64,000 nucleotides of DNA from assembly GCA_015488325.1 (NCBI GenBank), contig WFOA01000010.1, positions 15,945 through 79,944 on the forward strand. Reading direction: 5' to 3'. Below, piece by piece: positions 1 through 33,658 of this stretch. The notes under the pieces are model-generated. The model saw only the letters and a list, made by a program, of their open reading frames with translations. It did no database searches and was not told the origin of the DNA. A program made the translations under genes and the position numbers. Each line of letters starts with the position of its first letter. Position 1 is the first letter of the stretch. This DNA comes from Acidimicrobiia bacterium (GTDB lineage Bacteria > Actinomycetota > Acidimicrobiia > Spongiisociales > ZC4RG35).

Positions 1-1413
1 CACCTCGGCGGTCCGGTCGTCGACCCACGCGAACAGCGCCTCGTCTCCCCGTCCCAGACCGTCGACGACGAACACGCAGGCCGACCAGCCTTCGGCGTAG
101 CGGGCCAGGTCGTCGGGGGTCGGGTCGCCGCTCGGGTAGCCGATGGCGGTGACGCCGAGCATCAGTTCGGTGACCGCTGGTTTCCGGGAGATGACCGGTT
201 CCGTCTCCACCCGTCCGGCGGCGTCCCGATGGGCCTGGTAGAAGTCGAGCTCCTTCGTCGAAGGGCCGATGCTCTGGACGAAGCCGGACAGCCCGGCCGC
301 CAAAGCGACGGCTGCCATCGTCGCCAGGATCCCGTAGACGACACGCCGCTTCGTCGCCGCCGAACGGACCCGGTCTGCGGCCAGGCCGCCGAGCCGGTCG
401 AAGGCCACCGCCAGTCCCCCGAGGAGGACCGGGGCGACGGGGACGACGAGGCGGACCGACTCGGTGACCCTGATCGGCCAGGCCAGCAGGAGGAGGAGGT
501 ACACGGCGGTGCCCGAGACGACATCCCATCGGAAGGGTCGGGAACGACCGAGCAGACCCCACGCCATCGCCGCCAGGGTGGCGGCGGCGAGGGCCGGGCC
601 GAGGGGTGTCGCCAACACCCGGTAGGGCCAGACCAGTCGGGGGACGCCGTACCGTCCGAAGGTGACGATCCCCGACCCTATCTGGCGGGCGACGGAGGCG
701 ACGGGGCCGGCGGTCGCCGCGTTGGCGTCGTAGATGCTCTCGGCGATCTCGACGTAGCTCGGGTCGGCGACCGGCCCGGTGGCGAAATGGGCTGCGGCGG
801 CGCCGAGGATCAGGACCAGCGCCACGATGGCGACCCGGAGCCGGCGGCGGAGGCGGAGCAGCCACAGGATCCCGAAGAAGGGTGCGACGGCGATGCGGAC
901 GGCGACGGCCGCACCGGTGATGGCCGCCGCCCACATCCCCCGGCGGTCGTCCGCCAACAACACGAGGGCGACGAAGGCGAGCACGACCGGTTCGGGGTTG
1001 ATACCCCGGAGGAACCCGAGTCCGGCCTGACCGAGAGCGAAGGCTGCCGTCACGCCCAGGGAGGCCCAGGCCGTCGCCCGGAGACGGACCACCCGGTAGG
1101 TGAGGGCCAGGGCCGCCACCGCCACCCCCACCGTGAGGACCTCGATGGCCACCGTCGCCGCCGCCGGGTCGCCTCCGGTCGCCCACAGGACCGGGACGAG
1201 GAGGATCGGCAGACCGGGGCTGTACCGGGACCGGGCGACGTCGCCTTCGGAGAAGGCGATGGCGTCCCGCAGGTAGTAGGTGCCGTTGCCGAGCTCCAGG
1301 TCGGGGCCGACCCGGGCCAGTTGGAGGAGGGCGAAGCCGACGAGGACGACGACCAGCCAGAACCGTTCGTCGAATCGGATGATGCGGCGTGCCGGCTCCG
1401 CCTCAGTCGTCAC
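1..1413 (-). CDS. polytopic integral membrane protein, N-terminal part only (runs off the window); candidate GT-C-type glycosyltransferase or polymerase of the glycan locus
   Basis: Minus-strand frame is open from the GTG at 1411-1413 down to position 1. The GTG overlaps the stop of the upstream oxidoreductase gene. The translation (VTTEAEPARRIIRFDERFWLVVVLVGFALLQLA...) is dominated by hydrophobic helices and shows strong GC3 bias. It is absent from the ORF track because it has no in-window stop. Confidence 0.6.
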   Translation of the reverse strand, partial: MTTEAEPARRIIRFDERFWLVVVLVGFALLQLARVGPDLELGNGTYYLRDAIAFSEGDVARSRYSPGLPILLVPVLWATGGDPAAATVAIEVLTVGVAVAALALTYRVVRLRATAWASLGVTAAFALGQAGLGFLRGINPEPVVLAFVALVLLADDRRGMWAAAITGAAVAVRIAVAPFFGILWLLRLRRRLRVAIVALVLILGAAAAHFATGPVADPSYVEIAESIYDANAATAGPVASVARQIGSGIVTFGRYGVPRLVWPYRVLATPLGPALAAATLAAMAWGLLGRSRPFRWDVVSGTAVYLLLLLAWPIRVTESVRLVVPVAPVLLGGLAVAFDRLGGLAADRVRSAATKRRVVYGILATMAAVALAAGLSGFVQSIGPSTKELDFYQAHRDAAGRVETEPVISRKPAVTELMLGVTAIGYPSGDPTPDDLARYAEGWSACVFVVDGLGRGDEALFAWVDDRTAEV

Positions 1414-2890
1414 GCACGGTCACCTTCCGAGGCACCATGCGGCCACCCGTGTCGTCGGCGGAGACCTCCTCCAGGTATTCGGCGTCCTGGTTGACCCGCC
1501 ACTGGTCCCATTCCTGACCCGCCAGGTTCCGGGCGGCCATGAGTCCGGTCATCATGGCATGGTCCTGGTTGTTGTATTTGTGCATGCCGTTGCGGCCGCA
1601 GAGCTGGAGGTTGTCGAACTCGGCGTCGAGGTAGCTGCGGATCACCGCCACGTTGGCGGCGTATTCCTCGTCGTAGACGGGGTACGCCTTGTGCACCCGG
1701 ATCACCGTGCCGTCGATCACCTTGTCCGAGTCGATGAGCCCGATGGAGGCGAGCTCGCGGGATCCCCGCTCCAGCAGCTCCTCGTCGGTGGCGTCCCACA
1801 GGTCGTCGCCTTCGTTGCAGAAGTACTCCAACCCGAGGGCGGTGTGCCGCTGATCGGGCACCATCTCCGGCGACCAGTTCTTGAAGTTCTGGACCCTGCC
1901 CACCCGGACGGACGGGTCGTGGATGTAGATCCAGTTGTCCGGGAACACGTCCGGGTCGTCGAGGACGAGGACGACGGTGAGGAAGTCCCGATAGCGAAGG
2001 GCCCGGGCGGCGTCGAGGACCTCCGACGGCGGTTTCGGGCGGAGACCTTCGACGAGGGCACGGATCGGCATCGACGACACCATGGCGTCGACGGCGACCC
2101 GGCGCGACTCCGTCGCCGTCTCCACTTCGAGGGCCACCACCCGCCCACCGTCGTGGTGGATCTCCGCGACGCGGGTTCCCAACTGGACCGACACGCCTCG
2201 GGCGGCGAGGTCTTCGGCGACCCGTTCCCACATCATCCCGGGGCCGAGGCGGGGGTATTCGAACTCTTCGATGAGGGTCTTGACGATCTCTCCCCGTTGA
2301 CCGAACAGCGCTTGTTTCACCGCTCGGAACAGGGAGAGCCCTTTGATGCGCTGCGCCGCCCAGTCGGCCGAGATCTCCGAACAGGGCATCCCCCACACCT
2401 TCTCGGTGTAGGTCTTGAAGAAGATCTCGTAGAGCCGGCGACCGAAATGGGCGACGACCCAGTCCTCGAAGGAGACGATGTTTCGTTTCGGACGAAGCGT
2501 CGACGCCAGGTAGGAGAATCCACATCGGGCGGCTTCGACGACCCCGAGCTTGCGGAGGGCGTCTTTGGCGTCGAGGGGGTAGCGGAAAAACCGGCCCCGG
2601 TAGTAGATCCGGGACATCCGCTGGCGGACCAGGAAGTCCTCGTCGGGCAGGAACCGATGCCACAGTTCACGGATCTCGTCGCTCTTGGTGAAGAAACGGT
2701 GTCCACCGATGTCGAAGCGGTACCCGCCGTAGCGTTCGGTTCGTGACAGCCCTCCGACGAGGCTCGGATGAGCCTCGAACACCGTCGGTCGCAGCCCCAG
2801 CCGGTCCAGCTCCCAGGCGGCGGTGAGCCCCGCCGGCCCGGCGCCGACCACCCCGATCGTCCCTGAAGATCCGTCGCCCATCGCTCCCAT
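1403..2890 (-). CDS. NAD(P)/FAD-dependent oxidoreductase (amine-oxidase/protoporphyrinogen-oxidase-like fold)
   Basis: 495-aa ORF with an N-terminal dinucleotide-binding motif (IGVVGAGPAGLTAAWEL). Reading frame is consistent along its length. Confidence 0.8.
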   Translation of the reverse strand: MGAMGDGSSGTIGVVGAGPAGLTAAWELDRLGLRPTVFEAHPSLVGGLSRTERYGGYRFDIGGHRFFTKSDEIRELWHRFLPDEDFLVRQRMSRIYYRGRFFRYPLDAKDALRKLGVVEAARCGFSYLASTLRPKRNIVSFEDWVVAHFGRRLYEIFFKTYTEKVWGMPCSEISADWAAQRIKGLSLFRAVKQALFGQRGEIVKTLIEEFEYPRLGPGMMWERVAEDLAARGVSVQLGTRVAEIHHDGGRVVALEVETATESRRVAVDAMVSSMPIRALVEGLRPKPPSEVLDAARALRYRDFLTVVLVLDDPDVFPDNWIYIHDPSVRVGRVQNFKNWSPEMVPDQRHTALGLEYFCNEGDDLWDATDEELLERGSRELASIGLIDSDKVIDGTVIRVHKAYPVYDEEYAANVAVIRSYLDAEFDNLQLCGRNGMHKYNNQDHAMMTGLMAARNLAGQEWDQWRVNQDAEYLEEVSADDTGGRMVPRKVTVRDD

Positions 2891-2949: not shown

Positions 2950-2986
2950 TATGCGCCGGTGATGCTCCCCCGGGCTGCGTTCCGGC

Positions 2987-5248
2987 TCACGGGGCGAGGT
3001 AGGAGTGGAGGGCGTCCCCCACGGTCTCGGAGACGACCCCCGGACCTCCGAGGATGAAGATGCGGCGAGGGGCGAGCCGACCCAGCTCGGTGGCCGTCGC
3101 CCCCGGGATGGCGTCGGGACGGGTGAGGAGCACGGGACGTCCTCCGAGGCCTCCGGGGGGTCCGCCGGCGAGGGCGTCGGGATAGTCGAGACCGGTGGCG
3201 ACCAGGACTTCCTCGGCGGTGGCGAAGCTCCCCTGGGAGACCGCCGCCGCCGTGGCGTACCGGTCGGCGCCGGCCCTCCGCACGACGGTGTAGTCGGCCG
3301 CCAGGCTCGCCTCGACGTCCGAGGAGATCACCCCGGTTCCCCCGAGGAGCACCACCGTGGACACCCCCAGATCCGCCAGGGCCTGGCGGGTCACCGTCGG
3401 GACCTGATCGGTACGGGTGAGAAGCAGCGGCCCCGGGATCGAGCCGGCGGCGGGGGCACCGGCGAGGGCGTCCGGGTAGTTCTCCCCGGTGGCCAGGTAG
3501 GCGGTGGAGGCACCCGAAGGCCACTGGCCGGAGGCCACCGCCGCCGCCGTGGCGTACCGGTCGGGCCCGGCCCACCGCACCACCGCCGGGTTGGAAGGGA
3601 GCCCCGCCAACGCCGCCGCCACCGCGTCGGAGATCACCCCGGTCCCGCCGACGATCACCACGGTCTTCGGGGCGAGGCGAACCAGCTCCGCCAGGGTGGC
3701 CGACGGGACGGCGTCGGTGCGTACCAGCAGCACCGGGGCGGAGGCCGCCGCCGCCGCCGGTCCGGCGGCGAGGGCGTCGGGATAGTTGAGACCGGTGGCG
3801 ACGAACACGGTGGCGGCGCCGTCGGGGAAGAAATACGAGGAGACGGCCGCCGCCGTCCCGTACCGGTCGGCGGCCCACAGGCGGATGACGCTGAACGCCT
3901 CGCCGACGAAGACGTCGCCTTCGGCGTTGGTGTCGTCGCCCACCAGGTTCGACGCGAAGGAGTCGAAGGCGACGAACCGTCCGTCGTCGGAGACGGAAGC
4001 CGCCAGAGAGTCGCTGTTGGAGGGGGTGCCGTCGGAGGCCACCGACACCAGTTCGGCCCGGTTCGTCTGACGGTCGTAGACGAACACGTCCCGCCGGCCG
4101 TTGGTGTCGTCGGCCACCAGGTTCGAGGCGTAGGAGTCGAAGGCGACGAACCGTCCGTCGGCCGAGATCGAGGCGTCCTGGGAGGCACCGTCGGCCTCGG
4201 TGCCGTCGAAACCGACCGAGACCCGTTCGACGGTGTCGGTCTGGCGGTCGTAGACGAACACGTCCTTCGTCCCGTTGGTGTCCCCCGCCACCAGGTTCGT
4301 CGCCGACGACTCGAAGGCCACGTACCGGCCGTCGGCCGAGATCGAGGCGAAGAAGGAGTCGGCGTCCCCCTCGGTACCGTCGGAGGCGACCGAGACCCGT
4401 TCGACGGTGTCGGCCTGACGGTCGTAGACGAACACGTCGCGGGCTCCGTTGGTGTCCCCGGCCACCAGGTTCGAGGCCCACGAGTCGAACGCCACGAACC
4501 GTCCGTCGTCGGAGAGGACGGGAAGCACCGACGAGGCGTTGCCCTGCGTCCCTCCCGACGCCACCGACACCCGTTCGATGGTGTCGGTCTGACGGTCGTA
4601 GACGAACACGTCGGTGTTGGCGTTGGTGTCTCCCGGCACCAGGTTCGTCGCCGACGATTCGAAGGCCACGTACCGGCCGTCCCCGGAGATGGAGGGGAAA
4701 CGGGCCGGCCCGTTGCTCTCCGCACCGTCCCAGGCGATCGACACCCGTTCGACGGTGTCGGTCTGACGGTCGTAGACGAACACGTCCGAGATGCCGTTGG
4801 TGTCCCCCGCCACCAGGTTCGTCGCCGACGACTCGAAGGCCACGTACCGGCCGTCTGTCGACAGCGACGGATGGAGGGAACTGGCATCGCCCTGGGTGCC
4901 GTCCGAAGCCACCGACACCCGCTCCACCGCACCGGTCCAGCGGTCGTAGACGAAGATGTCGGCGGTGGCGTTGGTGTCCCCCGCCACCAGGTTCGTCGCC
5001 CACGACTCGAAGGCCACGTACCGGCCGTCCCCCGAGATGGACGCGAACAGCGAGTATCCGTCACCTTCGGTCCCGTCGCCCGCCACCGACACCCGGTCGG
5101 TCACTACCCGGGCGGCCGAGACAGGCCGCACGCCGACGACGCCGGCGACCAGGGCCACGACGCCGATCCCGGCGATCCACCGTCTCGTCTTCGAGGTCAC
5201 CGAAACCCTCCACTCGTCCCCGTCGACACCTGTCGGACAGCGATGCAC
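2987..5248 (-). CDS. secreted protein with 7 tandem ~58-aa PD40/TolB-like beta-propeller repeats and 3 C-terminal CWB2-type cell-wall-binding repeats
   Basis: Hydrophobic N-terminal segment (WIAGIGVVALVAGVVGV). Seven repeats of the pattern GDG..S..SISGDGRYVAFES.ATNLVAGDTN...DVFVYDR.TDTVERVS. Three repeats of DRYATAAAV..(ATG.NYPDALAG)..P(V/L)LL..(VP)..GGTGVIS. Alternative GTG start 42 nt downstream is possible. Confidence 0.85.
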   Translation of the reverse strand: MHRCPTGVDGDEWRVSVTSKTRRWIAGIGVVALVAGVVGVRPVSAARVVTDRVSVAGDGTEGDGYSLFASISGDGRYVAFESWATNLVAGDTNATADIFVYDRWTGAVERVSVASDGTQGDASSLHPSLSTDGRYVAFESSATNLVAGDTNGISDVFVYDRQTDTVERVSIAWDGAESNGPARFPSISGDGRYVAFESSATNLVPGDTNANTDVFVYDRQTDTIERVSVASGGTQGNASSVLPVLSDDGRFVAFDSWASNLVAGDTNGARDVFVYDRQADTVERVSVASDGTEGDADSFFASISADGRYVAFESSATNLVAGDTNGTKDVFVYDRQTDTVERVSVGFDGTEADGASQDASISADGRFVAFDSYASNLVADDTNGRRDVFVYDRQTNRAELVSVASDGTPSNSDSLAASVSDDGRFVAFDSFASNLVGDDTNAEGDVFVGEAFSVIRLWAADRYGTAAAVSSYFFPDGAATVFVATGLNYPDALAAGPAAAAASAPVLLVRTDAVPSATLAELVRLAPKTVVIVGGTGVISDAVAAALAGLPSNPAVVRWAGPDRYATAAAVASGQWPSGASTAYLATGENYPDALAGAPAAGSIPGPLLLTRTDQVPTVTRQALADLGVSTVVLLGGTGVISSDVEASLAADYTVVRRAGADRYATAAAVSQGSFATAEEVLVATGLDYPDALAGGPPGGLGGRPVLLTRPDAIPGATATELGRLAPRRIFILGGPGVVSETVGDALHSYLAP
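3870..5090 (-). repeat. seven in-frame tandem ~174-bp repeats encoding the PD40-like propeller blades (coordinates approximate)
   Basis: Recurring DNA/protein units (...SISGDGRYVAFES.ATNLVAGDTN...DVFVYDRQTDTVERVS). Confidence 0.7.
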
Positions 5249-5287: not shown

Positions 5288-6130
5288 TCAGAGTCGGCGG
5301 CCCCAGACCGCCAGGTCGAGGGAGGTGAGTTCCGACAGGTTACGGACCGACGCGTCGAGGCGGGCCGTCACCGACCCGGGAAGCGGCTGGTCCCGGGATT
5401 CCGCCCGCAGCCGTTCGGCCATCGGATCCCGGCGGAGCAGGAGGGGACGTACGAGCTTGCGGATCGCCCGGGGGGTGACCGGTTCGAGGCGCCGCAGCAG
5501 GCGGCTGTCGTACAGGCGCCTCATGAGGGGCGTGTAGTCGGGTTTGTCGGCGGTGACGTTCACGGCGACCCGGGGGTGGGGACTCGGCGGCAGATCCAGG
5601 AACGCCAGCACCTCGCTCCAGGCCGGATGCTCGCCGTCGACCAGATGTTCCATCTGGACGACCAGGAGCGCCTCGGTCCCGAACCGTTCGAGGAAGGGAG
5701 CCAGGGCCAGGTCGTAGAGGCTGCGGCGAACGTAGGGGTTGTCGGGTTCGGAGACGGCCTGGAGGAACGGTCGACGTTCCCTCCCATGATGCACTTCGTG
5801 CCGATAGTGGCTCCGCAGCCGGGTCTCCGGCTCCCGAAGCACACAGATGAGCCGCACCGACGGGCACATCTCGGCGATCCGAGCGGCGACCTCGGAGGCC
5901 ACCTGGGGGTCCGAGTACGCCACCGAAGCCTCCCCGGCGAGACCGTCGGTCGGGAACAGCGACCGGTAGCGCCGGTGGGCCCGGGAACCTGGCCCGTTGC
6001 CGGTGAGGAAGAACTCGGGTTCTTTCTCCCTGCACAGGATCGAACCCGACGCCTGCTGGAGCCACCGGAACAGGGCGGTGGTTCCCGATTTCATGGTGCC
6101 GACGATGATGAACTCGGGGTCGCGGCTCAT
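5288..6130 (-). CDS. PAPS-dependent sulfotransferase family protein
   Basis: 5'-PSB P-loop-like motif (FIIVGTMKSGTT) and 3'-PB-like motif (REPETRLRSHY). ATG at 6128-6130 (MSRDPEF...) is preferred over the upstream ATG at 6157. Confidence 0.8.
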   Translation of the reverse strand: MSRDPEFIIVGTMKSGTTALFRWLQQASGSILCREKEPEFFLTGNGPGSRAHRRYRSLFPTDGLAGEASVAYSDPQVASEVAARIAEMCPSVRLICVLREPETRLRSHYRHEVHHGRERRPFLQAVSEPDNPYVRRSLYDLALAPFLERFGTEALLVVQMEHLVDGEHPAWSEVLAFLDLPPSPHPRVAVNVTADKPDYTPLMRRLYDSRLLRRLEPVTPRAIRKLVRPLLLRRDPMAERLRAESRDQPLPGSVTARLDASVRNLSELTSLDLAVWGRRL

Positions 6131-18679: not shown

Positions 18680-18681
18680 GG

Positions 18682-24613: not shown

Positions 24614-25498
24614 ATGAAAGTGCTCGTCACGGGGGCAGCCGGTTTCTTGGGGAGAACGGTCGCCACCTATCTGAAGGAGCAAGGACATCACGTCGTCGGG
24701 TTCGACCTGAAAGACCCGGGAATCGACGGTCTCACGATGCAGATCGGTGACCTCACCGACCTCGATCAGGTCTCGGCTGCGGTCGAAGGCCACGACGCGG
24801 TGTGTCACATCGGAGCGATCGGCGACGTCTACCTGGCCGGGGAGGATCCCGGCCTGGCGGCGGCGGTCAACGTGTTGGGGACCGCCAACGTCGCCGAAGC
24901 GGCGGTGCGTCACGGCGCCCGGGTGGTCTACGCCTCCACGTGGGAGGTCTACGGTGAACCCCGATACCAGCCGATCGACGAAGACCATCCCTGCGCCCCC
25001 GACCACCCGTACAACATCACGAAGCTGGCGGGCGAGTCGCTGCTGCTGTCGGCTGCACGTCTCCGTGGGCTCGAGACGGTCGCCCTCCGTCTCGGCACCG
25101 CCTACGGGCCGGGTCTGCGCCCGAACTCGGTGTTTCGGATCTTCATCGACCGGGCACGCCGAGGCGAGCCGATCACCATTCAGGGTGACGGCTCCCAGGG
25201 GCGGCAGTTCACCCACAGCCGCGACATCGCCCGGGCCTTCGACCTGGCGCTCCGGTCCGACGTCTCCGGGGTCGCCCTGAACACGGTGGCGACACGGACC
25301 GTGACGATTCGTGAGCTGGCGGAGAAGGTGGTCGAACGGTTCCCCACCGAGCTCACCTTCGGACCGCCCCGTCCCGGCGACGTCCCTCCGGCGACCGTCT
25401 CGGCGGCCCGGATCGCCGACGTCCTCGGATGGGAGGCGCAGATCCCCTTCGAGGACGGGCTCGCCGACCTGATCGACCATGAGCTCGCCGGAGACTGA
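24614..25498 (+). CDS. NAD-dependent epimerase/dehydratase (UDP-glucose-4-epimerase-like, short form)
   Basis: ATG preceded by GGGAGG. MKVLVTGAAGFLGRTV Rossmann motif. Catalytic YNITK (YxxxK). Confidence 0.85.
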   Translation: MKVLVTGAAGFLGRTVATYLKEQGHHVVGFDLKDPGIDGLTMQIGDLTDLDQVSAAVEGHDAVCHIGAIGDVYLAGEDPGLAAAVNVLGTANVAEAAVRHGARVVYASTWEVYGEPRYQPIDEDHPCAPDHPYNITKLAGESLLLSAARLRGLETVALRLGTAYGPGLRPNSVFRIFIDRARRGEPITIQGDGSQGRQFTHSRDIARAFDLALRSDVSGVALNTVATRTVTIRELAEKVVERFPTELTFGPPRPGDVPPATVSAARIADVLGWEAQIPFEDGLADLIDHELAGD

Positions 25499-27526: not shown

Positions 27527-28869
27527 GACAGCAGATCGTCCTCGGGATCGGCGCCGGGTTGACGGCACTGGTCGCGTTCGTCCTCGCCGCCGGCGCCGTC
27601 CCCCTCCACCTCGTGGTGCTGGCGGTGGCCGGCCTCTCCGTCACCTACCTGGTGGGTCGGGCGATGGCGACGGACTTCGACCGGTCCTGGCTCCCCGGTC
27701 TCCTGGTGGCCGGACTGGCCGCGAAGCTGGTCGGGGCCTGGGTCCGGTACTTCGTCCTCATCGAGGTGTACGGCGGTGTGGGTGACGCCCTCGGATACCA
27801 CAGCCGAGGCCTCCGCCTCGCCGAGATGTTCCGGGCGTTCACGGTCCCCACCTTCGAGGACGCCGGTTTCGGGTCGACCGGCACCCGGTTCGTCTCCTGG
27901 TTCACGGGTCTCGTCTACACGCCGTACCAGCCCGAGCCCCTCGGCGGTTTCTGGCTGTTCTCGCTGATCGCGTTCGCCGGCACGGTTCTCTTCTACGCGG
28001 CGGTGCGACGCAGCCTGCCACCGTCGACGTGGCGGCGGTTCCTCATCATGCTGATGTTCTGGCCGACGCTGCTGTACTGGCCGTCGTCGGTGGGCAAGGA
28101 AGCCCTGATCCTGGGCTTCGGAGGGGTGGTGACCTACGGGGCGGCGCGGCTGTTCGAGCGGTACCGCCTGAGCTGGCTGCTCGTCATCGGCGCGGCGATG
28201 GCCGTCATAGGCATCATCCGGGTCCACGTCGCCGGCCTGTTCGCCGGAGCGATCGTCGTCGGCATGCTCGTCTCCGCCGCACCTCGCGGTGCAGGCCCGA
28301 AGAGTCGCCGCCTCCTCCTCATGGCGGCCGGGTTCGCGGCGCTCATCCCCCTGGCCGCCCTGGTCTCGAGGGAGTTCGGCATCGACCCCAGCGGCCCCCT
28401 CGACCCCTCCGCCCTCGAGCCGGTCCTGTCCGAGGTGGCCCGCACCACCGGCCAGGGAGGCTCGGCGGTGCAGGGCGGGGTGATCCGCTCCATCGCCGAC
28501 GTCCCGGCCGGTGTCCTCAAGGTGTTGTTCCGTCCCCTCCCCTACGAGGCGTCCAACATCCAGATGCTGGCGGCCAGCGTCGAGGGCGTGGCGTTGCTCC
28601 TGTTGATCCTCTCCCGCACCCCGTGGATGATCGGGAACCTGCGTCGGCTGCGCCGCTTCCCGTATCTGATCTTCGCCGCCACGTTCTCGGCCGGTTTCGT
28701 GGTGGCCTGGAGCGCGATCCTCAACCTGGGGATCATCGCCCGCCAGCGGGCCCTCGTCATCCCCTTCGTCCTGACCCTCGTCGCCGGCCTCGGCTGGCCC
28801 CTGGCCGCCGGCGAGGAGCCGGCTTCCGCTGCCGAACCCGACCGGGACGCCGCCCTCAACCCCACTTGA
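27523..28869 (+). CDS. polytopic membrane protein, candidate Wzy-type polysaccharide polymerase
   Basis: 448 aa with about 10-12 predicted TM helices and a larger loop in the C-terminal half. Sits among glycosyltransferase genes. Polymerase function is inferred from context only. Confidence 0.6.
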   Translation: MRQQIVLGIGAGLTALVAFVLAAGAVPLHLVVLAVAGLSVTYLVGRAMATDFDRSWLPGLLVAGLAAKLVGAWVRYFVLIEVYGGVGDALGYHSRGLRLAEMFRAFTVPTFEDAGFGSTGTRFVSWFTGLVYTPYQPEPLGGFWLFSLIAFAGTVLFYAAVRRSLPPSTWRRFLIMLMFWPTLLYWPSSVGKEALILGFGGVVTYGAARLFERYRLSWLLVIGAAMAVIGIIRVHVAGLFAGAIVVGMLVSAAPRGAGPKSRRLLLMAAGFAALIPLAALVSREFGIDPSGPLDPSALEPVLSEVARTTGQGGSAVQGGVIRSIADVPAGVLKVLFRPLPYEASNIQMLAASVEGVALLLLILSRTPWMIGNLRRLRRFPYLIFAATFSAGFVVAWSAILNLGIIARQRALVIPFVLTLVAGLGWPLAAGEEPASAAEPDRDAALNPT

Positions 28870-29794
28870 GCGCGGCCCCCACGGCGCCGACCACCGCCAG
28901 CACCCCGGTGACCGCCGCCGCGCCCACCCCGGCCCACCACCAGGCGGCGACGACCGCGCCACATAGGAGCGCCTGCGCCCCGGCGGCCACGAACACGACC
29001 GTCGGCACGCTCCACCCCCGGTCGGCCAGCCGGTCGTAGAGATGGGACCGGTCCCCTTGGAACAGGGGCATCCCCGCCCTCCGCCGTCGCAGCACCGTCG
29101 AGACGAGGTCGACGAGGAACACGCCGAGCAACGAGCCGCCGGCGACCATCCCGACCACGTCTTCGCCTCCCAGCCGGACACCGGAGGCCACGAGCATCAG
29201 GCCGACCAGGTAGCTGCCGTTGTCCCCGAGGAACACCCGCGCCGGATGCCAGTTGAAGACACCGAACCCGACCAAGGCGGCACCGAGGGCGACTTCGGCA
29301 CCGAGATCCGCTCCCGACGTCGACCCGACCAGCCCCATCGCCACCAGCGTCACCAGGGCCACCGACGCGACCAACCCGTCGAGGCCGTCGAAGAGGTTCA
29401 CGGCGTTGATCCCCACCACCACGCCGGCGGCGACGAGGGCACCGCCGACGGGTCCGACCCCGAGAGCCCAGGCCACGAGCACCCCGGCGACGGCTTCGAC
29501 GGCGAGCCTGAGCACCGGGGGCAGGCCTCTGCGGTCGTCGACCAGCCCCAACGCGACCACCAGCCCTGCCGCGACCATCAGCCTCGGGGAGGGACGTCCG
29601 GTGAGTATCGACGAGACGACGAGGGCGCCGTACAGCCCCACCCCTCCGAGGGGCACCGCCGGGACCGTGTGGACTTTCAGGGCCTCCCCGGGTCGGTCGA
29701 CGATCCCCAGTCGGGGGCCGAGCGCCGGTGCGATCGCCGACCACCCGGCGGAGACGACTGCGGCGGCGAGCCCTCCGGCGATCAGGCCGACCAC
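28856..29794 (-). CDS. polyprenyl-phosphate N-acetylhexosamine-1-phosphate transferase (WecA/MraY family, GT4 polyprenol-P class)
   Basis: MraY/WecA motifs (VGINAVNLFDGLDGL, FLGDNGSYLVG). GTG start overlaps the upstream gene stop by 12 nt. The N-terminal 275 aa in the ORF track are an artefact. Confidence 0.75.
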   Translation of the reverse strand: MVGLIAGGLAAAVVSAGWSAIAPALGPRLGIVDRPGEALKVHTVPAVPLGGVGLYGALVVSSILTGRPSPRLMVAAGLVVALGLVDDRRGLPPVLRLAVEAVAGVLVAWALGVGPVGGALVAAGVVVGINAVNLFDGLDGLVASVALVTLVAMGLVGSTSGADLGAEVALGAALVGFGVFNWHPARVFLGDNGSYLVGLMLVASGVRLGGEDVVGMVAGGSLLGVFLVDLVSTVLRRRRAGMPLFQGDRSHLYDRLADRGWSVPTVVFVAAGAQALLCGAVVAAWWWAGVGAAAVTGVLAVVGAVGAALKWG

Positions 29795-31554
29795 ACCAGC
29801 ACCTCCGAGGTCTCGCCGCGGTGGACTTCGATCGTCCCCACCGGTTCGAACCCCATCTTCCGGTAGGCGGCGATCGCCGCCGAGTTGTCGGCGCCCACGA
29901 CCACCTTCACCTTCCCCACGCGGCTCATCGCGGTGAGGAGCTCCCGTCCCAGAACGGTGCCGATCCCTCGACCGCGCCGATCCGCCACCACCGCCATCGA
30001 CACCAGTTCGGCGTCGACGCCGACGTCGCCGCCTTCGTAACGGAAGGTCTCCCAGGCCCGCCGCAGCATCGTCGGGCGCAGCAACCGAGGTGCGGCCGCC
30101 ACGACCGCCCGGATCCCGAAGCGACGGACGAAGGAACGGTAGAAGGCGCCGATGTCGGCGACGCCGGCGACGAACCCGACCGGCCCGCACTCGTCCTCGG
30201 CGACGAGCACGACGGCGTCTTCGTGTTCCACGAGCGCACGGTAGAGGAGTGTCATGAACCGGCGTCCCAGACGGGGCAGGAAACCGGTGGAGATCGCTTG
30301 CGCGTGCAGGACGGCCAGGAAACGGGTGTCCCCTTCGTCGGCCCGCCGGACCCGGACCTCGCCGGAAGGTCCGTCGCCGAGGGCGGCCGCCAGCCGGTCC
30401 AGGCCTTTGGTGAGGGCGAGCTCCCGATAGGTGGAGAGGACGATCTCGACGACCCTGTCCTCGTCGAAGAGCCGTCTGGCCCGTTCGCGCCCGGCCCGGC
30501 CCATCCGAGAGGCCAGCTCCGGGTCGTCCCCGATGGTCCGGATCGCCCGGGCCAGGGACCGGGCGTCGGAGACGGGGACGAGGAGGCCGTTCTCGCCGTC
30601 GGCGACGACCTCCCGGCATCCCCGGATGTCGGTGGCGACGATGGGCAGGCCCATGGCGGCAGCCTCCATCGCCGCCCGGGGGAAGCCTTCACGGTGCGAC
30701 GGGAGCACGAACACGTCCATCGTCGGGTAGAGGGCATCGACGTCGGTGCGCATCCCCAGGAACCGGACGCCGTTCGCCTTCGCCCGTTCGATCATCGCGT
30801 CGCCGAGGTCGTCCGCCTTTTCGGGGTCCCGGGGCCCGATGCAGACCACCACGTACCGGTCGTCGAGGAGTCGGGCGGCCTCGAAGAGCTCCGGGTAGCC
30901 CTTCTCCGCCACCATCCGCCCCACCATGCCCACCACCACCGCGTCCGACGGGATGCCGAGCTCGGCACGCATCCGATCCCGATGGGACCGGTCGTACCGG
31001 GCGGGATCGAACCGGGCGAGGTCGACACCGTTGCCGAGATGCCGTGTCCGAGCCCGGGGTGCGAGACGCAGCCTGTGGGCCAGTTCGAGATCCTCCGCGC
31101 TCTGATAGAGCTCGGCGTCGGAGAACCGGGAGGCGACGAACTCCAGGGCGTAGACGACCAGGCGTTTCAGCGGTGGATCGTCGGGGGCCGCGTAGAAGCC
31201 GTGCACCGTGTTGACGACGACGGGCACGCCGGCCACACGGCCGAGGATCCGACCGTAGACGCCGGGTTTGGGGTTGTGGGTGTGCAGCACGTCCGGTCGG
31301 AGCCGCCTCAGCACCCTCCAGAGCTGGGCGGCTGCCCGCAGGTCGGCGCCGAGGCTCATCCCACGTGTCGACGCCGACAGTGCCACATGTTCGATGCCTG
31401 CCGCCTCCAGCTCGGCCACCCAGGGGCCGGGAGAGGAGATCCCCACCGACCGGATGTCCCTCTGGAGGGGTGCGAGGAGCTGGGGGAACACCAGGTAGCG
31501 GAGGGACAGGTCCACCGTCGTCAGGTGGGCGATCACCGGGCGCCGATCAGCCAT
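29782..31554 (-). CDS. bifunctional fusion: glycosyltransferase family 4 (N-terminal ~400 aa) + GNAT N-acetyltransferase (C-terminal ~190 aa)
   Basis: GT4 signature (VFVLPSHREGFPRAAMEAAAMGLPIVATD). GNAT motif A (ADRRGRGIGTVLGRELL...AAIAAYRKMGF). Confidence 0.85.
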   Translation of the reverse strand: MADRRPVIAHLTTVDLSLRYLVFPQLLAPLQRDIRSVGISSPGPWVAELEAAGIEHVALSASTRGMSLGADLRAAAQLWRVLRRLRPDVLHTHNPKPGVYGRILGRVAGVPVVVNTVHGFYAAPDDPPLKRLVVYALEFVASRFSDAELYQSAEDLELAHRLRLAPRARTRHLGNGVDLARFDPARYDRSHRDRMRAELGIPSDAVVVGMVGRMVAEKGYPELFEAARLLDDRYVVVCIGPRDPEKADDLGDAMIERAKANGVRFLGMRTDVDALYPTMDVFVLPSHREGFPRAAMEAAAMGLPIVATDIRGCREVVADGENGLLVPVSDARSLARAIRTIGDDPELASRMGRAGRERARRLFDEDRVVEIVLSTYRELALTKGLDRLAAALGDGPSGEVRVRRADEGDTRFLAVLHAQAISTGFLPRLGRRFMTLLYRALVEHEDAVVLVAEDECGPVGFVAGVADIGAFYRSFVRRFGIRAVVAAAPRLLRPTMLRRAWETFRYEGGDVGVDAELVSMAVVADRRGRGIGTVLGRELLTAMSRVGKVKVVVGADNSAAIAAYRKMGFEPVGTIEVHRGETSEVLVWSA

Positions 31555-33658
31555 CGATCGTGCTCCTCAGGACCTGCTCGTACCGGTCGATGCTCGCACC
31601 CATCGTGTACCTGCGGGCCAGCTCCCGGGCGGCGGCACCCATCCGGCGGCGACGCTCGGGATCCGCGGCGAGGTTCTTCAGGGCGGCGGCGGCACCTTCG
31701 ACGTCCCCGGGCCGGACCAGGATCCCCGTCGTACCGTCGGTCACCACTTCGGGGGTGCCTCCCACCCGGGTCGCCACCACCGGACGTCCCGCCGCCGCGG
31801 CCTCCAGCACGACGCCGGGGAGCCCTTCGGTGCGGGAGGTGGACAACAGCACGTCCGCCCATCCGAACAGCTCTTCCATCTCCGCCGCCGAACCGAGGAC
31901 CTCGATCCGGGGACCCGCCGCCGCCTCGACTTCGGTGCGCAACGGGCCGTCACCGGCGATCTTCGCCCACACGTCGGCGTCGGCCGCGGCGAGGTTGATC
32001 GCCTGCACCGCCGTCAGCGGGTCCTTCTCCGTGGACAGGGCGCCGGCCACCAGCACCCGCAGCTCGGGGTGCGGGAGGGGCGGGTCCAGCTCGAACCAGT
32101 GGTCGGGCACGCCGGTGGGCGCGACCGTGACCCGGTCGGGGGCCACACCCATCGAGTCGATGAGCTGGCTGCGGGTGGCCTCCGACACGGCGGTGATCCG
32201 GTCGCAACGTCCGAGGAGGTACCGCTGGATCCGAGCGTGCCACGGGCCCCGCACCCAGTACCGGGGTTCACCGATCGACGAGTAGACGACGCGGGGACGC
32301 CCGGGCATGAACCTGGTGGCGGCGACGACGGTCCGCAGGGTGGCTCCTCCGTTGGCCAGGACGACGTCGGGCCGGCGCCGCCGGAGGAGCCTGCGCAACA
32401 GCCGTGGCAGCGCCACGTCGGAGACGTCGGCTCCCCCGACGGCGTCGTCCACCTGGACCCGGGGGTCGGATCCGCCGGCTCTGAGGGCCACCAGGCTCGC
32501 CTTCCATCCCCGTGCCCGCAGGCCCTCGACGAGACGTTCACCGAACACTTCGGCGCCGCGTCGCCGATCGGAGCTGACCAGCACCATCACCGACCCGAAC
32601 CGGTCCCCCTTCGAGGCGACGACCCGCCGACGCCAGCGCGGGTAGGCGCGGGGGGCCCGCAGCGCCAGCACCGCCCGGTCGAGCCGTCGGTCGGCGTGGA
32701 GGGTGACCGCCAGGTTGAGGAGATGGGGCCTCTTCCCGTCGAACCGCACCAGGTCGGTGCGGGGGAGCAACTCCCGGGCGACCCGGAGGGGGAGACCGCC
32801 GGTGGAGGTCTCCGCCAACACCTCCCCGGGTACGGCGGCTCCCAGGGCGGAGGCGACGCTCCAGGCCAGATGCCCGAACCCGGCCAGGCCGTGGTCGTGG
32901 GCGAAGCGGACCGCCGTCTCCCAGTCGAGGCCGTGCCGGGCGACTTCGACGAGGTCACGGAACAGCACCAGCCGGAACCGATGATCCAAGAGGGCGTGGG
33001 TACACAGGAACGCCGCCACGACCTCGTCGGGCAGCAGCCACCCGAGGTGGGTCTGGTCCGGCTCGGGGGGACGTGCCCGCTCCCACGCCTGCTCGGTCGC
33101 TCCGGCGGCGCGGCCGCGGAGTTGACGGTACGAGAAGAGGTCCCAGTGCAGGTCGACGTTGAAGACCACCCCGGAGGGGTCGCGGAACGGGATGTCCCGT
33201 TTGTCGGCTCTCGGTCGCTTCGGTGGAATCCCCAGACATTCGGGGTCGGAGGCGACGATCTCAAGGGTGCGACCGAGTTCGGCGGACGGGACGACCAGAT
33301 CGAGGTCGGTGAAGATCCGCTGGCCCGGGGTCGGGTAGAGCCGGTCCGCCAGCGCGGGCCCCTTCACCACCGCCGCTCGGATGCCGGCGGCGGCGAGGCG
33401 TTCCATGAGGCGACGGAGGCTGCGGCGCATCACGATGCCCAGGGCGACCGCCCGGGTCTGCACGGTGGACAGCTCGTGGCGATCGACGACGTCGCCGGGG
33501 GTGAGCAGGCCGACCAGACCGTGGCTACAGGCGAGTTCGAAGACGGCGCCGTCGACCGACCCGGCCGGGCGTTCCCATCCTGCCGCCACCGCCGCCAGCA
33601 CCCGTTCGGCGGGATCGGCCGCGAACAGCCATCCTTCGTTCGGTTCGGTGCCCCTCAC
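31547..33658 (-). CDS. fusion: uncharacterised nucleotidyltransferase-like domain (NTP_transf_5-type, N-terminal ~330 aa) + glycosyltransferase family 4 (C-terminal ~370 aa)
   Basis: N-terminal domain carries a polymerase-beta-like nucleotidyltransferase motif (RIFTDLDLVVP). C-terminal GT4 signature (LLSTSRTEGLPGVVLEAAAAGRPVVATRVGG). Confidence 0.8.
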   Translation of the reverse strand: MRGTEPNEGWLFAADPAERVLAAVAAGWERPAGSVDGAVFELACSHGLVGLLTPGDVVDRHELSTVQTRAVALGIVMRRSLRRLMERLAAAGIRAAVVKGPALADRLYPTPGQRIFTDLDLVVPSAELGRTLEIVASDPECLGIPPKRPRADKRDIPFRDPSGVVFNVDLHWDLFSYRQLRGRAAGATEQAWERARPPEPDQTHLGWLLPDEVVAAFLCTHALLDHRFRLVLFRDLVEVARHGLDWETAVRFAHDHGLAGFGHLAWSVASALGAAVPGEVLAETSTGGLPLRVARELLPRTDLVRFDGKRPHLLNLAVTLHADRRLDRAVLALRAPRAYPRWRRRVVASKGDRFGSVMVLVSSDRRRGAEVFGERLVEGLRARGWKASLVALRAGGSDPRVQVDDAVGGADVSDVALPRLLRRLLRRRRPDVVLANGGATLRTVVAATRFMPGRPRVVYSSIGEPRYWVRGPWHARIQRYLLGRCDRITAVSEATRSQLIDSMGVAPDRVTVAPTGVPDHWFELDPPLPHPELRVLVAGALSTEKDPLTAVQAINLAAADADVWAKIAGDGPLRTEVEAAAGPRIEVLGSAAEMEELFGWADVLLSTSRTEGLPGVVLEAAAAGRPVVATRVGGTPEVVTDGTTGILVRPGDVEGAAAALKNLAADPERRRRMGAAARELARRYTMGASIDRYEQVLRSTIDG

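Follow-up and report, generated by a model that had tools for sequence, protein, structure and literature searches.

Polysaccharide loci of the Wzx/Wzy type routinely encode deacetylases and acetyltransferases, and S-layer glycan clusters typically combine rml genes with a lipid-linked pathway. Sulfotransferases are unusual in such loci, yet precedents are found in the polysaccharide loci for synechan (PMC8205485) and in wps-1 of Actinoplanes (PMC13390465). In C. difficile, PSII, an anionic polymer, is the ligand of CWB2 domain triplets (PMC5817068). Wzy-type polymerases carry invariant polar residues in their outer loops, according to the CAZy authors (PMC10920833). Here, we analyzed a window of 64,000 nucleotides on a metagenome scaffold of an uncultured Acidimicrobiia lineage, which agrees with the actinobacterial host proposed by an initial annotation. 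The host cell envelope is probably monoderm. Genes were called based on third-position GC bias and domains were scanned with Pfam and NCBIfam. An unbroken run of 25 genes fills positions 1-33658 (Table 1). All but one carry domains of glycan pathways or stand in such a context, the exception being the wall-binding protein g3. Such clustering of glycan genes far exceeds chance. The earlier reading of a coherent lipid-carrier pathway of the Wzx/Wzy type is supported. The locus is a large cluster for a decorated cell-surface sugar polymer, an ordinary kind of pathway of which some parts are uncharacterized proteins.

Table 1. Genes of the glycan locus in window coordinates, with the assigned product and the supporting match.
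Gene	Product	Position	Strand	Match
g1	polytopic membrane protein, weakly GT87/DUF2029-like	1..1413	-	PF09594 E 2e-4
g2	FAD-dependent, UDP-galactopyranose-mutase-like enzyme, PRK07208 family	1403..2881	-	NF005548
g3	secreted beta-propeller + 3x CWB2	2987..5200	-	PF04122 E 3e-53
g4	PAPS-type carbohydrate sulfotransferase, cytoplasmic	5288..6130	-	PF13469
g5	fused MsbA/PglK-type ABC exporter, TMD + NBD	6517..8226	+	PF00005, PF00664
g6	GT2 glycosyltransferase	8238..9140	-	PF00535 E 1e-19
g7	GT4 (GT-B) glycosyltransferase	9223..10404	+	PF13692 E 1.5e-23
g8	GT2 glycosyltransferase	10395..11300	-	PF00535 E 3e-25
g9	Wzx-type MOP flippase	11323..12897	+	PF13440 E 1e-66
g10	GT2 glycosyltransferase	12876..13739	-	PF00535 E 2e-23
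g11	DRL-family NAD(P) oxidoreductase with SAF domain	13755..14906	-	PF21135 E 7e-34
g12	RmlA, glucose-1-phosphate thymidylyltransferase	14903..15808	-	TIGR01207
g13	extended SDR	15805..16842	-	PF01370
g14	RmlC-type dTDP-4-dehydro-6-deoxyhexose 3,5-epimerase (cupin)	16839..17411	-	TIGR01221
g15	GT4 glycosyltransferase	17501..18850	-	PF00534 + PF13692, E about 1e-33
g16	CE4 polysaccharide deacetylase	18847..19629	-	PF01522 E 2e-26
g17	PCP-2a (Wzc-like) co-polymerase	19634..22429	-	Wzc 7NHR match
g18	membrane-anchored CapD/PglF/WbpM-type UDP-HexNAc 4,6-dehydratase	22420..24417	-	PF02719, 353 bits
g19	extended SDR	24614..25498	+	PF01370 E 1.5e-45
g20	GT4 glycosyltransferase	25479..26585	+	PF00534 E 9e-39
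g21	GNAT (Acetyltransf_9) acyltransferase	26582..27526	+	PF13527 E 7e-18
g22	polytopic membrane protein, 448 aa, GT-C-like fold	27523..28869	+	predicted model
g23	WecA/WbpL-like polyprenyl-phosphate HexNAc-1-phosphate transferase (PNPT)	28856..29794	-	PF00953
g24	GT4 + C-terminal GNAT fusion	29782..31554	-	PF00534 E 2e-37; PF13508, PF00583
g25	N-terminal NTP_transf_5 + GT4 fusion	31547..33658	-	PF14907; PF13692, PF00534

The right edge of the locus at about 33.66 kb holds as annotated and is followed by an alpha/beta hydrolase, then acyl-CoA dehydrogenases, a TetR regulator and housekeeping genes. The left boundary does not hold. Position 1 is the edge of the window, where g1 is cut, and the locus runs on for at least 5 kb to the left in a strain sharing 96.6% DNA identity. 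The extension adds a methyltransferase, another two GT4s, and a second representative each of the MOP flippases and CE4 deacetylases. That MOP flippases and CE4 enzymes both occur twice, alongside an ABC exporter, suggests more than one product. Gene overlaps of 4-20 nt are seen in eleven same-strand pairs and of 10-22 nt in three convergent pairs, and five intergenic regions are divergent, in line with the divergent operons and translational coupling noted earlier. At its start, g1 shares 11 nt with the end of g2.

The initiating enzyme is, as predicted from its sequence, the WecA-like g23, which has about nine TM helices and scores 86 bits against PF00953 (cut-off 27) but just 73 bits against the WecA model TIGR02380 (cut-off 326). 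The three GT2 genes of the initial annotation (g6, g8, g10) were recovered, while its six GT4 genes reduce to five GT-B enzymes (g7, g15, g20, g24, g25). Among these, g7 is called as 393 aa in the related locus L007. The GNAT part of g24 spans residues 450-565, and L006, L014 and L016 have kept this fusion. The NTP_transf_5 domain of g25 scores 87 bits against PF14907 (cut-off 31) in a fusion conserved in L002, L004 and L016. The membrane protein g1 (about ten TM helices; 489 aa in the sister strain) is a putative GT-C glycosyltransferase with a PF09594 score below the Pfam cut-off. The initial gene list lacked g1, g2, g3, g5 and the NTP_transf_5 domain of g25.

The claim of a complete Wzx/Wzy toolkit stands for the initiator, the flippase and the co-polymerase, while the polymerase part rests on inference. 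The Wzx flippase g9 has about 13 TM helices, a start at 11323 or 11377, and 196 bits against the MOP flippase model NF007773 (cut-off 273). MsbA, HepA and PglK models match g5 with E-values from 1e-79 to 1e-92, yet none reaches its cut-off. This exporter is an accessory gene; it is missing from this position in the 78% lineage, and a 38%-identical homolog is coupled to a g22 homolog in L012. The protein g17 was described as Wzz-like, and the polysaccharide co-polymerase assignment with two TM helices stands. The type needs correction, as g17 belongs to the Wzc-type co-polymerases and is a predicted pseudokinase whose P-loop is dead. Its profile aligns with Wzc 7NHR (E 3e-11, residues 85-543) and also matches TIGR01007 (E 7e-15) and NF033452 (E 3e-10). 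Besides its two TM helices and coiled-coil outer domain, the protein has a kinase-like domain, followed by a Pro-rich linker and a conserved C-terminal domain of ~250 aa that is shared with BREX PglX/BrxX. An alignment of four orthologs shows a degenerate Walker A motif, with GK[ST] replaced by EDVH. A word-indexed search among 5.8 billion proteins recovered only four full-length homologs, and a HMMER search recovered the architecture in about 50 family clusters.

The membrane protein g22, previously called Wzy-like, is indeed polytopic. However, it has no Pfam or NCBIfam match even at E<10, including the Wzy, WaaL and EpsG families, and its 80 homologs are all unnamed. The best PDB folds for its AF2 model (pLDDT 90) are PglB, ArnT, STT3, ALG9, PMT and AftB, and neither WaaL nor Wzy appears among them. 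The top matches are all GT-C enzymes using lipid-linked donors, with weak scores (E about 0.01, TM 0.3-0.48). The residues D88, Y92, K192, R233, R407 and R409 are invariant. When the positive-inside rule is used to orient the model helices, the invariant polar residues are predicted to fall in outer loops, the same pattern as in Wzy-type polymerases. At the core of the minimal locus L016 are Wzx, PCP, PNPT, three GT4s and the g22 homolog, which has no competing polymerase candidate there. Hence, g22 is likely the repeat-unit polymerase (a Wzy analogue) by elimination, because the conserved core has no other polytopic membrane protein without an assignment. Given the missing family match and the weak, GT-C_A-like fold matches, g22 may alternatively act as a ligase, an oligosaccharyltransferase or a side-chain GT. 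The acyltransferase g21 is always directly upstream of g22 homologs (L002, L004, L013, L014, L015, L016).

Sugar-nucleotide supply is only partly assignable to named enzymes. The annotated rmlA and rmlC were corroborated above the NCBIfam equivalog cut-offs, with 484 bits for g12 (cut-off 361) and 214 bits for g14 (cut-off 156). The NCBIfam scan identified no RmlB or RmlD equivalogs in the locus. The two proteins annotated as epimerases are extended SDRs. One of these, g13, scores below the cut-offs of both RmlB and RmlD, and all its NCBIfam matches fall far short of theirs. Its nearest solved structure is 6VO6 (E 3e-34), and a motif alignment shows YxxxN in place of the catalytic YxxxK, hence the loss of the SDR catalytic Lys. 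The annotated SAF-domain dehydrogenase g11 matches the Brucella DRL 3UPL (E 6e-34) and is a candidate sugar-nucleotide reductase. The CapD-type dehydratase g18 was retained as annotated, with four TM helices preceding the SDR domain and PseB and FnlA models matching below their cut-offs. The divergently oriented g19 keeps an intact YxxxK, has MoeE5 and GalE-type epimerases as nearest solved structures, and is conserved together with g18 in L006, L014 and L016. It is a candidate 4-ketoreductase or epimerase acting downstream of g18. No aminotransferase is present in the locus. A furanose sugar nucleotide may be supplied by g2, which scores 722 bits against NF005548 (cut-off 389), a model named only "hypothetical protein". 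The solved structures closest to it are UGMs of the eukaryote type (4DSG, E 1e-22, nearly full length). The g2 start was placed at 2881 because L007 has a 492-aa call and an RBS-like GGGAG precedes this position.

The annotated tailoring enzymes were all recovered, i.e., the sulfotransferase g4, the deacetylase g16, the stand-alone GNAT g21 and the GT4-GNAT fusion g24, the latter two carrying the two GNAT domains. Describing them as rare was an overstatement, as even sulfotransferases have precedents and recur in related loci, with two to four such genes each. The sulfotransferase scores 32.5 bits against PF13469 (cut-off 27), has no TM helix and has at least 264 homologs. Heparan-sulfate 3-O-sulfotransferases are its nearest solved structures (E 7e-10) and share the aligned motifs GTMKSGTT (5'-PSB) and REPETRLRS (3'-PB) and a Glu. 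The surface polymer is probably sulfated. The deacetylase g16 carries TFDDG and HTHRH motifs and is next to g17 also in L006, L012, L014 and L016. Because all four enzymes are without a signal peptide, they are predicted to act on the cytoplasmic face. Next to g4, g3 has a signal-like hydrophobic N-terminal helix, a ~7-bladed beta-propeller and three CWB2 wall-binding repeats, with matches to PF04122 in three stretches, PD40 and Kelch. Its region contains a 174-nt tandem repeat (x6.8).

Taken together, a heteropolysaccharide is likely made on a polyprenyl-phosphate carrier, flipped by Wzx and displayed on the cell surface of the Acidimicrobiia host, as judged from gene content. The dehydratase g18 and the SDR g19 would provide a QuiNAc- or FucNAc-type 6-deoxy-HexNAc. 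The enzymes g12, g13, g14 and g11 would provide a dTDP-6-deoxy-L-hexose or another C3/C5-epimerized dTDP-sugar, and g2 a furanose sugar nucleotide. The lipid carrier would be primed by g23 and the repeat unit built by cytoplasmic GTs. On the same face, g4 would sulfate the repeat unit, and g16, g21 and g24 would perform N-deacetylation or re-acylation. Flipping would be performed by g9, possibly also by the PglK-like g5, followed by polymerization through g22 with chain length set by g17. Outside branches from a polyprenyl-phosphate sugar would maybe be added by g1. Domain scans identified no LCP-type ligase or other attachment enzyme in the window.

Gene conservation bears on whether a single polymer is made. 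Three relatives keep the gene order of the core at about 18.8-33.7 kb plus Wzx, whereas the left half is variable. The core comprises eleven genes (Wzx, CE4, PCP, CapD, SDR, GT4, GNAT, g22, PNPT, GT4-GNAT and NTP_transf_5-GT4), and g17 or g22 orthologs in relatives keeping the order are 78%, 72%, 32% and 36% identical to those of the window. We propose that the core is an ancestral module of the Acidimicrobiia lineage and the left half a lineage-specific elaboration. The left half encodes the rml-like operon, GT2s, the sulfotransferase, the ABC exporter, the UGM-like enzyme and the GT87-like protein. The initial annotation deduced a complex repeat unit from at least nine transferases. The deduction assumes one product, and the conserved core has only a PNPT and three GT4s. 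Because MOP flippases and GT-C-like proteins both occur twice and an ABC exporter is also encoded, the locus may combine a core pathway with accessory or second-glycan modules. These duplications, together with the two CE4 deacetylases, favor a composite locus, a tentative reading that we consider unlikely. The core would then make one short-repeat polymer and a left arm, spanning 1-17.4 kb and continuing for at least 5 kb outside the window, would make or decorate a second glycan. If so, nine or more transferases do not describe one repeat unit. That left arm has its own flippases, ABC exporter, GT2s, GT4s and rml-like operon, as well as the sulfotransferase, UGM-like enzyme and GT87-like GT-C. 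Distant relatives keeping only the core (as L016), the divergence of L006 past rmlC and the indel of g5 between lineages are consistent with such a split. However, g23 is the single initiating transferase in the window and the sequence seen to its left, and the only Wzx near the core in this lineage is g9, inside the left arm. The order from g25 to g7 is also collinear in the 78% lineage, therefore the arms travel together.

The locus could hardly be an already named, characterized polysaccharide cluster. The homology check for identical organization identified none in databases or literature, the closest loci being unnamed MAG or metagenome contigs. The scarcity of full-length g17 homologs argues in the same direction, as do NCBIfam equivalog-level names being restricted to rmlA, rmlC and the "hypothetical" FAD protein. 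Literature searches yielded analogues only, and the one on Acidimicrobiia, sulfotransferase and polysaccharide brought up nothing relevant. Protein glycosylation is improbable too. In this reading, g22 would be an oligosaccharyltransferase and attach the flipped oligosaccharide to a surface protein (e.g., g3), comparable to S-layer glycoprotein (slg) clusters. PglB, AglB and STT3 are among the top g22 folds, the locus encodes a secreted wall-bound protein, and rml genes with a lipid-linked pathway recall S-layer glycan clusters. Yet g22 has only 448 aa, lacks the large outer C-terminal domain of OSTs and reaches a TM-score of 0.30 to PglB. A Wzc-type co-polymerase is conserved with g22, therefore polymerization is implied, and g3 is not conserved with the core. 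A further reading, somewhat doubtful, is an anionic (sulfated) secondary cell-wall polymer anchoring CWB2-domain surface proteins such as g3. Lineage-wide core conservation would be expected of a structural wall polymer, and g3, with three CWB2 repeats and a signal-like N-terminus, lies inside the locus adjoining the sulfotransferase. Against this, g3 and the sulfotransferase are not neighbors in the 78% lineage, no g3 homolog occurs in the other related loci examined, and the window has no LCP ligase. Furthermore, L015 has a g22 homolog inside a diderm-type Wza/Wzz/BY-kinase export locus, typical of EPS or capsule. The Wzx-flipped surface heteropolysaccharide is the reading we prefer, which the L015 locus and the tight translational coupling also support, although its polymerase candidate is nearer in fold to GT-C_A enzymes (PglB, ArnT) than to WaaL or SEDS proteins. 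A wall polymer would instead give g3 a role like that of the Cwp proteins of C. difficile, which are anchored by PSII, the anionic polymer bound by CWB2 triplets.

Positions 1-33658 of the window hold 25 tightly packed genes (g1 to g25) of a surface-glycan locus, followed by g26, an alpha/beta hydrolase gene. Genes were called from third-position GC bias and families were assigned with Pfam and NCBIfam scans. Raw ORF lists are crowded with spurious frames because the G+C content of the window is ~70%, and our calls are consistent with those recorded for the same contig. Overlaps of 4-20 nt join eleven same-strand gene pairs and overlaps of 10-22 nt three convergent pairs, with divergent genes on either side of five intergenic regions, so the initial annotation was right to describe several divergent operons with translational coupling. 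Its right border at 33658 is also correct, since housekeeping-type genes come next (acyl-CoA dehydrogenases, a TetR regulator, SUF genes, fumarase, glutamate synthase and a sigma factor), but the left border at position 1 is not, as the locus runs past it. The sister-strain loci L007 and L008 are collinear with the window (96.6% DNA identity over 16.1 kb). Beyond g1, the sister strain (L008 16195-20843) encodes another MOP/MurJ-like flippase, a SAM methyltransferase whose N-terminus is Trm112p-like, another CE4 deacetylase and two further GT4s. This brings the true locus length to 38 kb or more. Scanning metagenome contigs for a DNA pattern added 1.4 kb (L011) carrying one further 216-aa ORF without a Pfam match, and did not reach the left border. 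Rfam, tRNA and tandem-repeat scans found no regulatory elements in the locus; the whole 64 kb contains no tRNA genes and no Rfam families at the gathering threshold. Outside the locus, two ORFs with strong coding bias lack a Pfam match (34898-35338, minus strand, 146 aa, without an NCBIfam match either, and 41059-42201, plus strand, 380 aa). A 508-aa protein combining a DUF4015 putative glycoside hydrolase with CarboxypepD_reg is encoded among housekeeping genes 19 kb from the locus (52974-54500, minus strand).

An initiator of the PNPT family (g23), a MOP flippase (g9) and a polysaccharide co-polymerase (PCP, g17) are present, and these family assignments show the locus to encode a polyprenyl-phosphate-linked, Wzx-flipped pathway with a PCP. 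The claimed initiating transferase matches PF00953 (86 bits against a cut-off of 27); its description as WecA-like holds for the PNPT family but not for WecA proper (TIGR02380, 73 bits against a cut-off of 326). The Wzx flippase is likewise well founded (PF13440, E 1e-66, ~13 TM helices), as are the three GT2s (g6, g8 and g10), the membrane-anchored CapD-type dehydratase g18 (PF02719, 353 bits) and the SAF-domain enzyme g11, a SAF/DRL oxidoreductase. The two genes called epimerases, g13 and g19, encode extended SDRs. GT4s number five (g7, g15, g20, g24 and g25) rather than six. All four tailoring genes named earlier are present (sulfotransferase g4, CE4 deacetylase g16, stand-alone GNAT g21 and GT4-GNAT fusion g24), but the rarity ascribed to such enzymes was overrated, and the complex repeat unit deduced from at least nine transferases presumes one single repeat unit. 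The initial annotation had missed g1, g2, g3, g5 and the N-terminal NTP_transf_5 domain of g25. The first of these is a 10-TM protein with weak GT87 similarity, truncated by the window edge. The g5 product is a fused MsbA/PglK-type half-transporter and the sole ABC protein of the locus. A Wzm/Wzt ABC-dependent pathway was rejected, as a separate pair of ABC-2 permease and ATPase was not found in the locus. The g5 gene (6517-8226, plus strand) behaves as a lineage indel: in L010, a locus of the lineage whose g17 is 78% identical, it is absent from the interval that separates GT2 and sulfotransferase.

Comparison with related database loci separates a conserved core from a variable left half. 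In L002, L005 and L010, the 78% lineage, gene order is collinear with the window from g25 to g7, and in L004 (g17 72% identical) the order is kept across the recovered stretch from g25 to g16. The core persists in distant relatives, namely L006 (g17 32% identical) and L012, L014 and L016 (g22 36-48% identical). Its cleanest form, in L016, consists of Wzx, CE4, a PCP-like protein (897 aa) and CapD, then SDR, GT4, GNAT and g22, then PNPT, GT4-GNAT and NTP_transf_5-GT4. Alongside an initiator, three GTs, a flippase and a co-polymerase, the set includes just one polytopic membrane protein without an assignment. The variable left half comprises the rml-like operon, GT2s, g7, the sulfotransferase, the ABC exporter, g3, g2 and g1; in the 78% lineage, g5 is missing at this site and g3 does not lie downstream of the sulfotransferase. 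Adjoining the L016 core (16122-17873) are genes for a GerE-type regulator and two small PqqD-domain proteins, of the kind that characterises RiPP or lasso-peptide clusters. The neighboring core gene bears the NTP_transf_5 domain, which also occurs in such clusters.

The one unassigned membrane protein of the core is g22. The initial annotation had called it Wzy-like, yet g22 has no Pfam or NCBIfam match even at E<10, and a polymerase role is suggested by context. All 80 homologs are unnamed, and the family profile found no match among PDB sequences. An AlphaFold2 model is confident (pLDDT 90, pTM 0.89, 52-sequence alignment), and its best 15 Foldseek matches in the PDB are all GT-C glycosyltransferases using lipid-linked donors, including PglB, ArnT, STT3, AglB, ALG9, ALG12, PMT and AftB; WaaL is absent among these 15. 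Foldseek probabilities reach 0.89-1.00, yet the matches are weak (E only 0.008-0.14, TM-scores 0.30-0.48). With the model helices oriented by the positive-inside rule, the Arg-rich loops 162-172, 212-217, 253-265 and 364-379 would be cytoplasmic and the invariant residues D88, Y92, K192, R233, R407 and R409 would lie in outer loops. Wzy-type polymerases likewise carry conserved residues in outer loops, according to the CAZy authors, and have an overall GT-C fold; one Wzy clan has a long N-proximal loop with conserved Asp, His and two Arg (PMC10920833). The locus offers no other Wzy candidate. With a single such unassigned protein in the L016 core, elimination makes g22 the likely polymerase. 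In the diderm-type Wza/Wzz/BY-kinase locus of L015, the same GNAT and a CE4 deacetylase flank a g22 homolog, which again fits a polymerase. The order of the Acetyltransf_9 GNAT followed by g22 is invariant (L002, L004, L013, L014, L015 and L016), suggesting that the two proteins work together. As a triad with a CE4 deacetylase, the pair recurs in distant loci (L013 9011-12087 and L015 8923-12063).

Coordinates, strands and distinguishing marks of selected features (window positions)
Feature	Position	Strand	Basis
g13	15805-16842	-	extended SDR in rmlA-rmlC operon, YAQAN at YxxxK site
g17 C-terminal domain	19634-20440	-	last 268 aa; NF033452, PDB 8C45/9EWZ
g17 kinase-like domain	20800-21300	-	Walker A GK[ST] replaced
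g21-g22 pair	26582-28869		Acetyltransf_9 GNAT, g22-family membrane protein

The co-polymerase g17 had been described as Wzz-like. Its two-TM PCP topology, with helices flanking a coiled-coil domain, upholds the co-polymerase assignment, but the protein is of the Wzc type: the profile match to E. coli Wzc (7NHR, E 3e-11) spans residues 85-543, beginning in the outer domain, crossing TM2 and reaching into the kinase domain. In three of four orthologs (the window protein and two close ones), TQPEDVH occupies the Walker A site, and the Lys is missing in all four, including the distant P0004. Since this lysine is missing and no Tyr-rich tail follows the kinase-like domain, g17 is a predicted PCP-2a pseudokinase; an active BY-kinase was rejected, with the intact GxxxxGK[ST] lost and no Tyr cluster found. 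Behind a Pro/Ala/Glu-rich linker, g17 ends in a conserved ~250-aa domain matching the C-terminus of the BREX methyltransferase PglX/BrxX (NF033452, E 3e-10; 8C45 and 9EWZ, E 3e-3). A HMMER search of 1.84 billion representatives recovered this domain in 367 proteins, ~50 of which share the 870-930-aa architecture of g17 and others are PglX-sized. The AF2 model of the domain is poor (pLDDT 56, 4-sequence alignment). A word-indexed search of 5.8 billion proteins returned only four full-length g17 homologs.

Among the sugar-nucleotide genes, the earlier rmlA and rmlC calls are confirmed, both exceeding their NCBIfam equivalog cut-offs (g12, TIGR01207, 484 bits against 361; g14, TIGR01221, 214 bits against 156). 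No gene of the locus reaches the cut-offs for RmlB or RmlD (TIGR01181 and TIGR01214, 365 and 224 bits); the best scores are 112 and 78 bits for g19, and g13 scores 42 and 39 bits. A canonical RmlABCD rhamnose operon was rejected, with neither an RmlB nor an RmlD equivalog in the locus, and rmlB and rmlD may be encoded elsewhere in the genome. The SDR g13 has 6VO6 as nearest solved structure (E 3e-34), which is probably Cj1427. Three g13 orthologs have YxxxN at the YxxxK site; the Asn is kept in L002 and L014, and the Lys in L012. Within the same operon, g11 is a DRL-family oxidoreductase matching 3UPL (E 6e-34). In the core, g18 has four N-terminal TM helices, and the generic extended SDR g19 is divergent from g18 and conserved with it. 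The FAD enzyme g2 has eukaryote-type UDP-galactopyranose mutases as its nearest solved relatives (4DSG, E 1e-22, near full length), which suggests a putative furanose residue. Alternative g2 starts giving 495 aa or 482 aa had no exact sequence match; the real start gives 492 aa.

Among the tailoring enzymes, the sulfotransferase g4 scores above the PF13469 cut-off, and its GTMKSGTT (5'-PSB), REPETRLRS (3'-PB) and the Glu of KEPEFF align with 3-OST-5 (3BD9). With both PAPS-binding sites and the Glu as catalytic base, g4 is a predicted carbohydrate O-sulfotransferase. A sulfate decoration of the product is probable. The CE4 motif set of g16 is intact, and neither g4 nor g16 has a signal peptide. 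Sulfotransferase-domain genes number two in L012 and four in L013 (two of them weak matches), and none was seen in the ~21 kb examined of L006, L014, L015 and L016.

Taken as a pathway, g18 and the conserved SDR g19 would produce a 6-deoxy-HexNAc. The lack of a DegT-type aminotransferase within 1-34 kb, unlike L012, L013, L014 and L015 where DegT is present, makes a sugar of the QuiNAc/FucNAc type likelier than bacillosamine. As in WbpM/WbpL-type modules, g23 probably moves this sugar, or GlcNAc-1-P, onto the carrier. The g14-g13-g12-g11 operon would begin with dTDP-glucose made by RmlA and includes a genuine RmlC. If RmlB is supplied from elsewhere in the genome, the operon product might be L-rhamnose or 6-deoxy-L-talose; alternatively, it might be a C3/C5-epimerised hexose reached by a route like that of the C. 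jejuni heptoses (PMC10680097). Sulfation by g4 would occur in the cytoplasm on the lipid-linked unit, given that g4 lacks a signal peptide, as has likewise been proposed for synechan (PMC8205485). Deacetylase g16 and the GNATs might take off and put on N-acyl groups of amino sugars. The unit would be flipped by g9, possibly also by the PglK-like g5, and then polymerised by g22 under the control of g17. In L012, a 38%-identical g5 homolog overlaps the start of the g22 homolog and is translationally coupled to it.

Other readings of the gene content were weighed. The locus could be composite, with a core polymer joined by a second or decorating pathway; the presence of two flippases along with the ABC exporter, and the pairs of CE4s and GT-C-like proteins, would suggest this. 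Against it, only a single initiator is visible and the 78% lineage keeps both arms together. It is unlikely that the locus serves protein glycosylation with g22 acting as oligosaccharyltransferase; a GT-C-like fold shared with PglB, STT3 and AglB would be in keeping with such a role, but g22 is a small protein without an OST-type outer domain and is always accompanied by a co-polymerase.

The nature of the product raises a further reading. Just left of the sulfotransferase, g3 encodes a secreted protein with an N-terminal hydrophobic helix, a ~7-bladed beta-propeller and three CWB2 repeats (PF04122, E 3e-53, three stretches). A 174-nt tandem repeat (6.8 copies, 76% identity; 3925-5099, minus strand) encodes the propeller blades and is the sole strong repeat of the locus. 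It is attractive to see the product as a sulfated secondary wall polymer anchoring CWB2 proteins, by analogy with C. difficile PSII, whose wall-glycopolymer locus adjoins triple-CWB2 protein genes and where CWB2 binds an anionic polymer (PMC5817068). The charge of PSII comes from phosphodiester bonds, whereas here it would come from sulfate. The anchoring reading is weakened by g3 not being conserved with the locus, its adjacency to glycan genes not being kept in relatives in contrast to the PSII/CWB2 arrangement. It is weakened further by the lack of an LCP (LytR-CpsA-Psr) ligase domain in any scanned gene of the window, unlike the PSII locus, in which LCP ligases are encoded. A bioRxiv S-layer paper makes no mention of Actinobacteria, Actinomycetota, Acidimicrobiia or PSII. 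We keep to a predicted Wzx-flipped pathway with g22 as the likely polymerase and a probably sulfated product.

Acidimicrobiia are abundant in soils, waters and sediments and are hardly cultured. To our knowledge, their cell envelope is essentially undescribed. Together with its relatives, the locus outlines a core glycan pathway conserved in the class and flags three uncharacterised conserved parts, namely the putative GT-C-fold protein g22, the PglX-like C-terminal domain of g17 and the coupling of the GNAT g21 with g22. The recurring sulfotransferases add to recent hints from Actinoplanes (2026) that sulfated polysaccharides among bacteria are not confined to cyanobacteria. We regard the finding as useful and unsurprising because the general picture of polymer synthesis is unchanged. 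A broader proposal, which we consider improbable at present, is that an as yet undescribed type of surface-glycan pathway is common to Acidimicrobiia and some other uncultured bacteria. It would combine a GT-C polymerase of the g22 family (~80 members, no Pfam or CAZy family), always after an Acetyltransf_9 GNAT, with a PglX-domain Wzc-like pseudokinase co-polymerase and an often sulfated product, here a sulfated CWB2-anchoring secondary wall polymer. If true, bacterial sulfated polysaccharides would reach well beyond cyanobacteria.

A literature search combining Acidimicrobiia, sulfotransferase and polysaccharide found nothing relevant. No named or characterised cluster of the same organisation matched either, so an already named cluster was rejected. 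The locus works like any Wzx/Wzy-dependent heteropolysaccharide system, and its closest characterised analogues are synechan xss, Actinoplanes wps-1 (a predicted sulfated EPS), modules of the WbpM/WbpL type and the hfs holdfast genes. Caulobacter hfs is a Wzx/Wzy-type system in which the cytoplasmic CE4 deacetylase HfsH and the GNAT-type HfsK tune a HexNAc polymer. The sequence likeness is weak, with NCBIfam matches of g16 to HfsH (E 6e-8) and of g10 to HfsG scoring far under family cut-offs, and the holdfast differs in its PHPT initiator and recognisable Wzy-type polymerases. WbpM/WbpL of P. aeruginosa and WreV/WreU/WreQ of Rhizobium etli combine a membrane CapD-type UDP-GlcNAc 4,6-dehydratase, a small WecA-family PNPT and an SDR 4-ketoreductase, and these modules provide QuiNAc or FucNAc as first sugar. 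Here g18, g23 and g19, of putative specificities, make up a corresponding trio and are conserved as a set. The Gram-negative systems make O-antigens that WaaL ligates to lipid A-core, whereas the locus here has no WaaL.

The rml-like operon resembles C. jejuni heptose modification, where the C4-dehydrogenase Cj1427 (an SDR), a cupin C3/C5 epimerase and a C4 reductase act on an NDP-sugar without a 4,6-dehydratase (PMC10680097). That pathway uses GDP-heptoses, whereas RmlA here points to dTDP-hexoses and g13 lacks the catalytic Lys. Within Actinomycetota, wps-1 of Actinoplanes missouriensis is alike in its predicted Wzx/Wzy/Wzz pathway, sulfotransferases and methyltransferase, with sulfation predicted and a role in the sporangium matrix (PMC13390465); a methyltransferase gene likewise lies just left of the window in the sister strain. 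It differs in belonging to the class Actinomycetes and in having two sulfotransferases of other subfamilies, a GH26, a protein-kinase-like gene and a recognisable Wzy. The xss genes of Synechocystis sp. PCC 6803 make synechan, a sulfated heteropolysaccharide that contains rhamnose and has a large repeat unit. They resemble the locus in gene content, being of the Wzx/Wzy type with a PCP, eight glycosyltransferases and cytoplasmic sulfotransferases (PMC8205485). The xss system differs in its diderm cyanobacterial host, OPX exporter, two sulfotransferases and recognisable Wzy. It is without a CapD/PNPT module, CE4 deacetylase, GNAT, UGM-like enzyme and CWB2 protein, whereas the locus described here has all of these.
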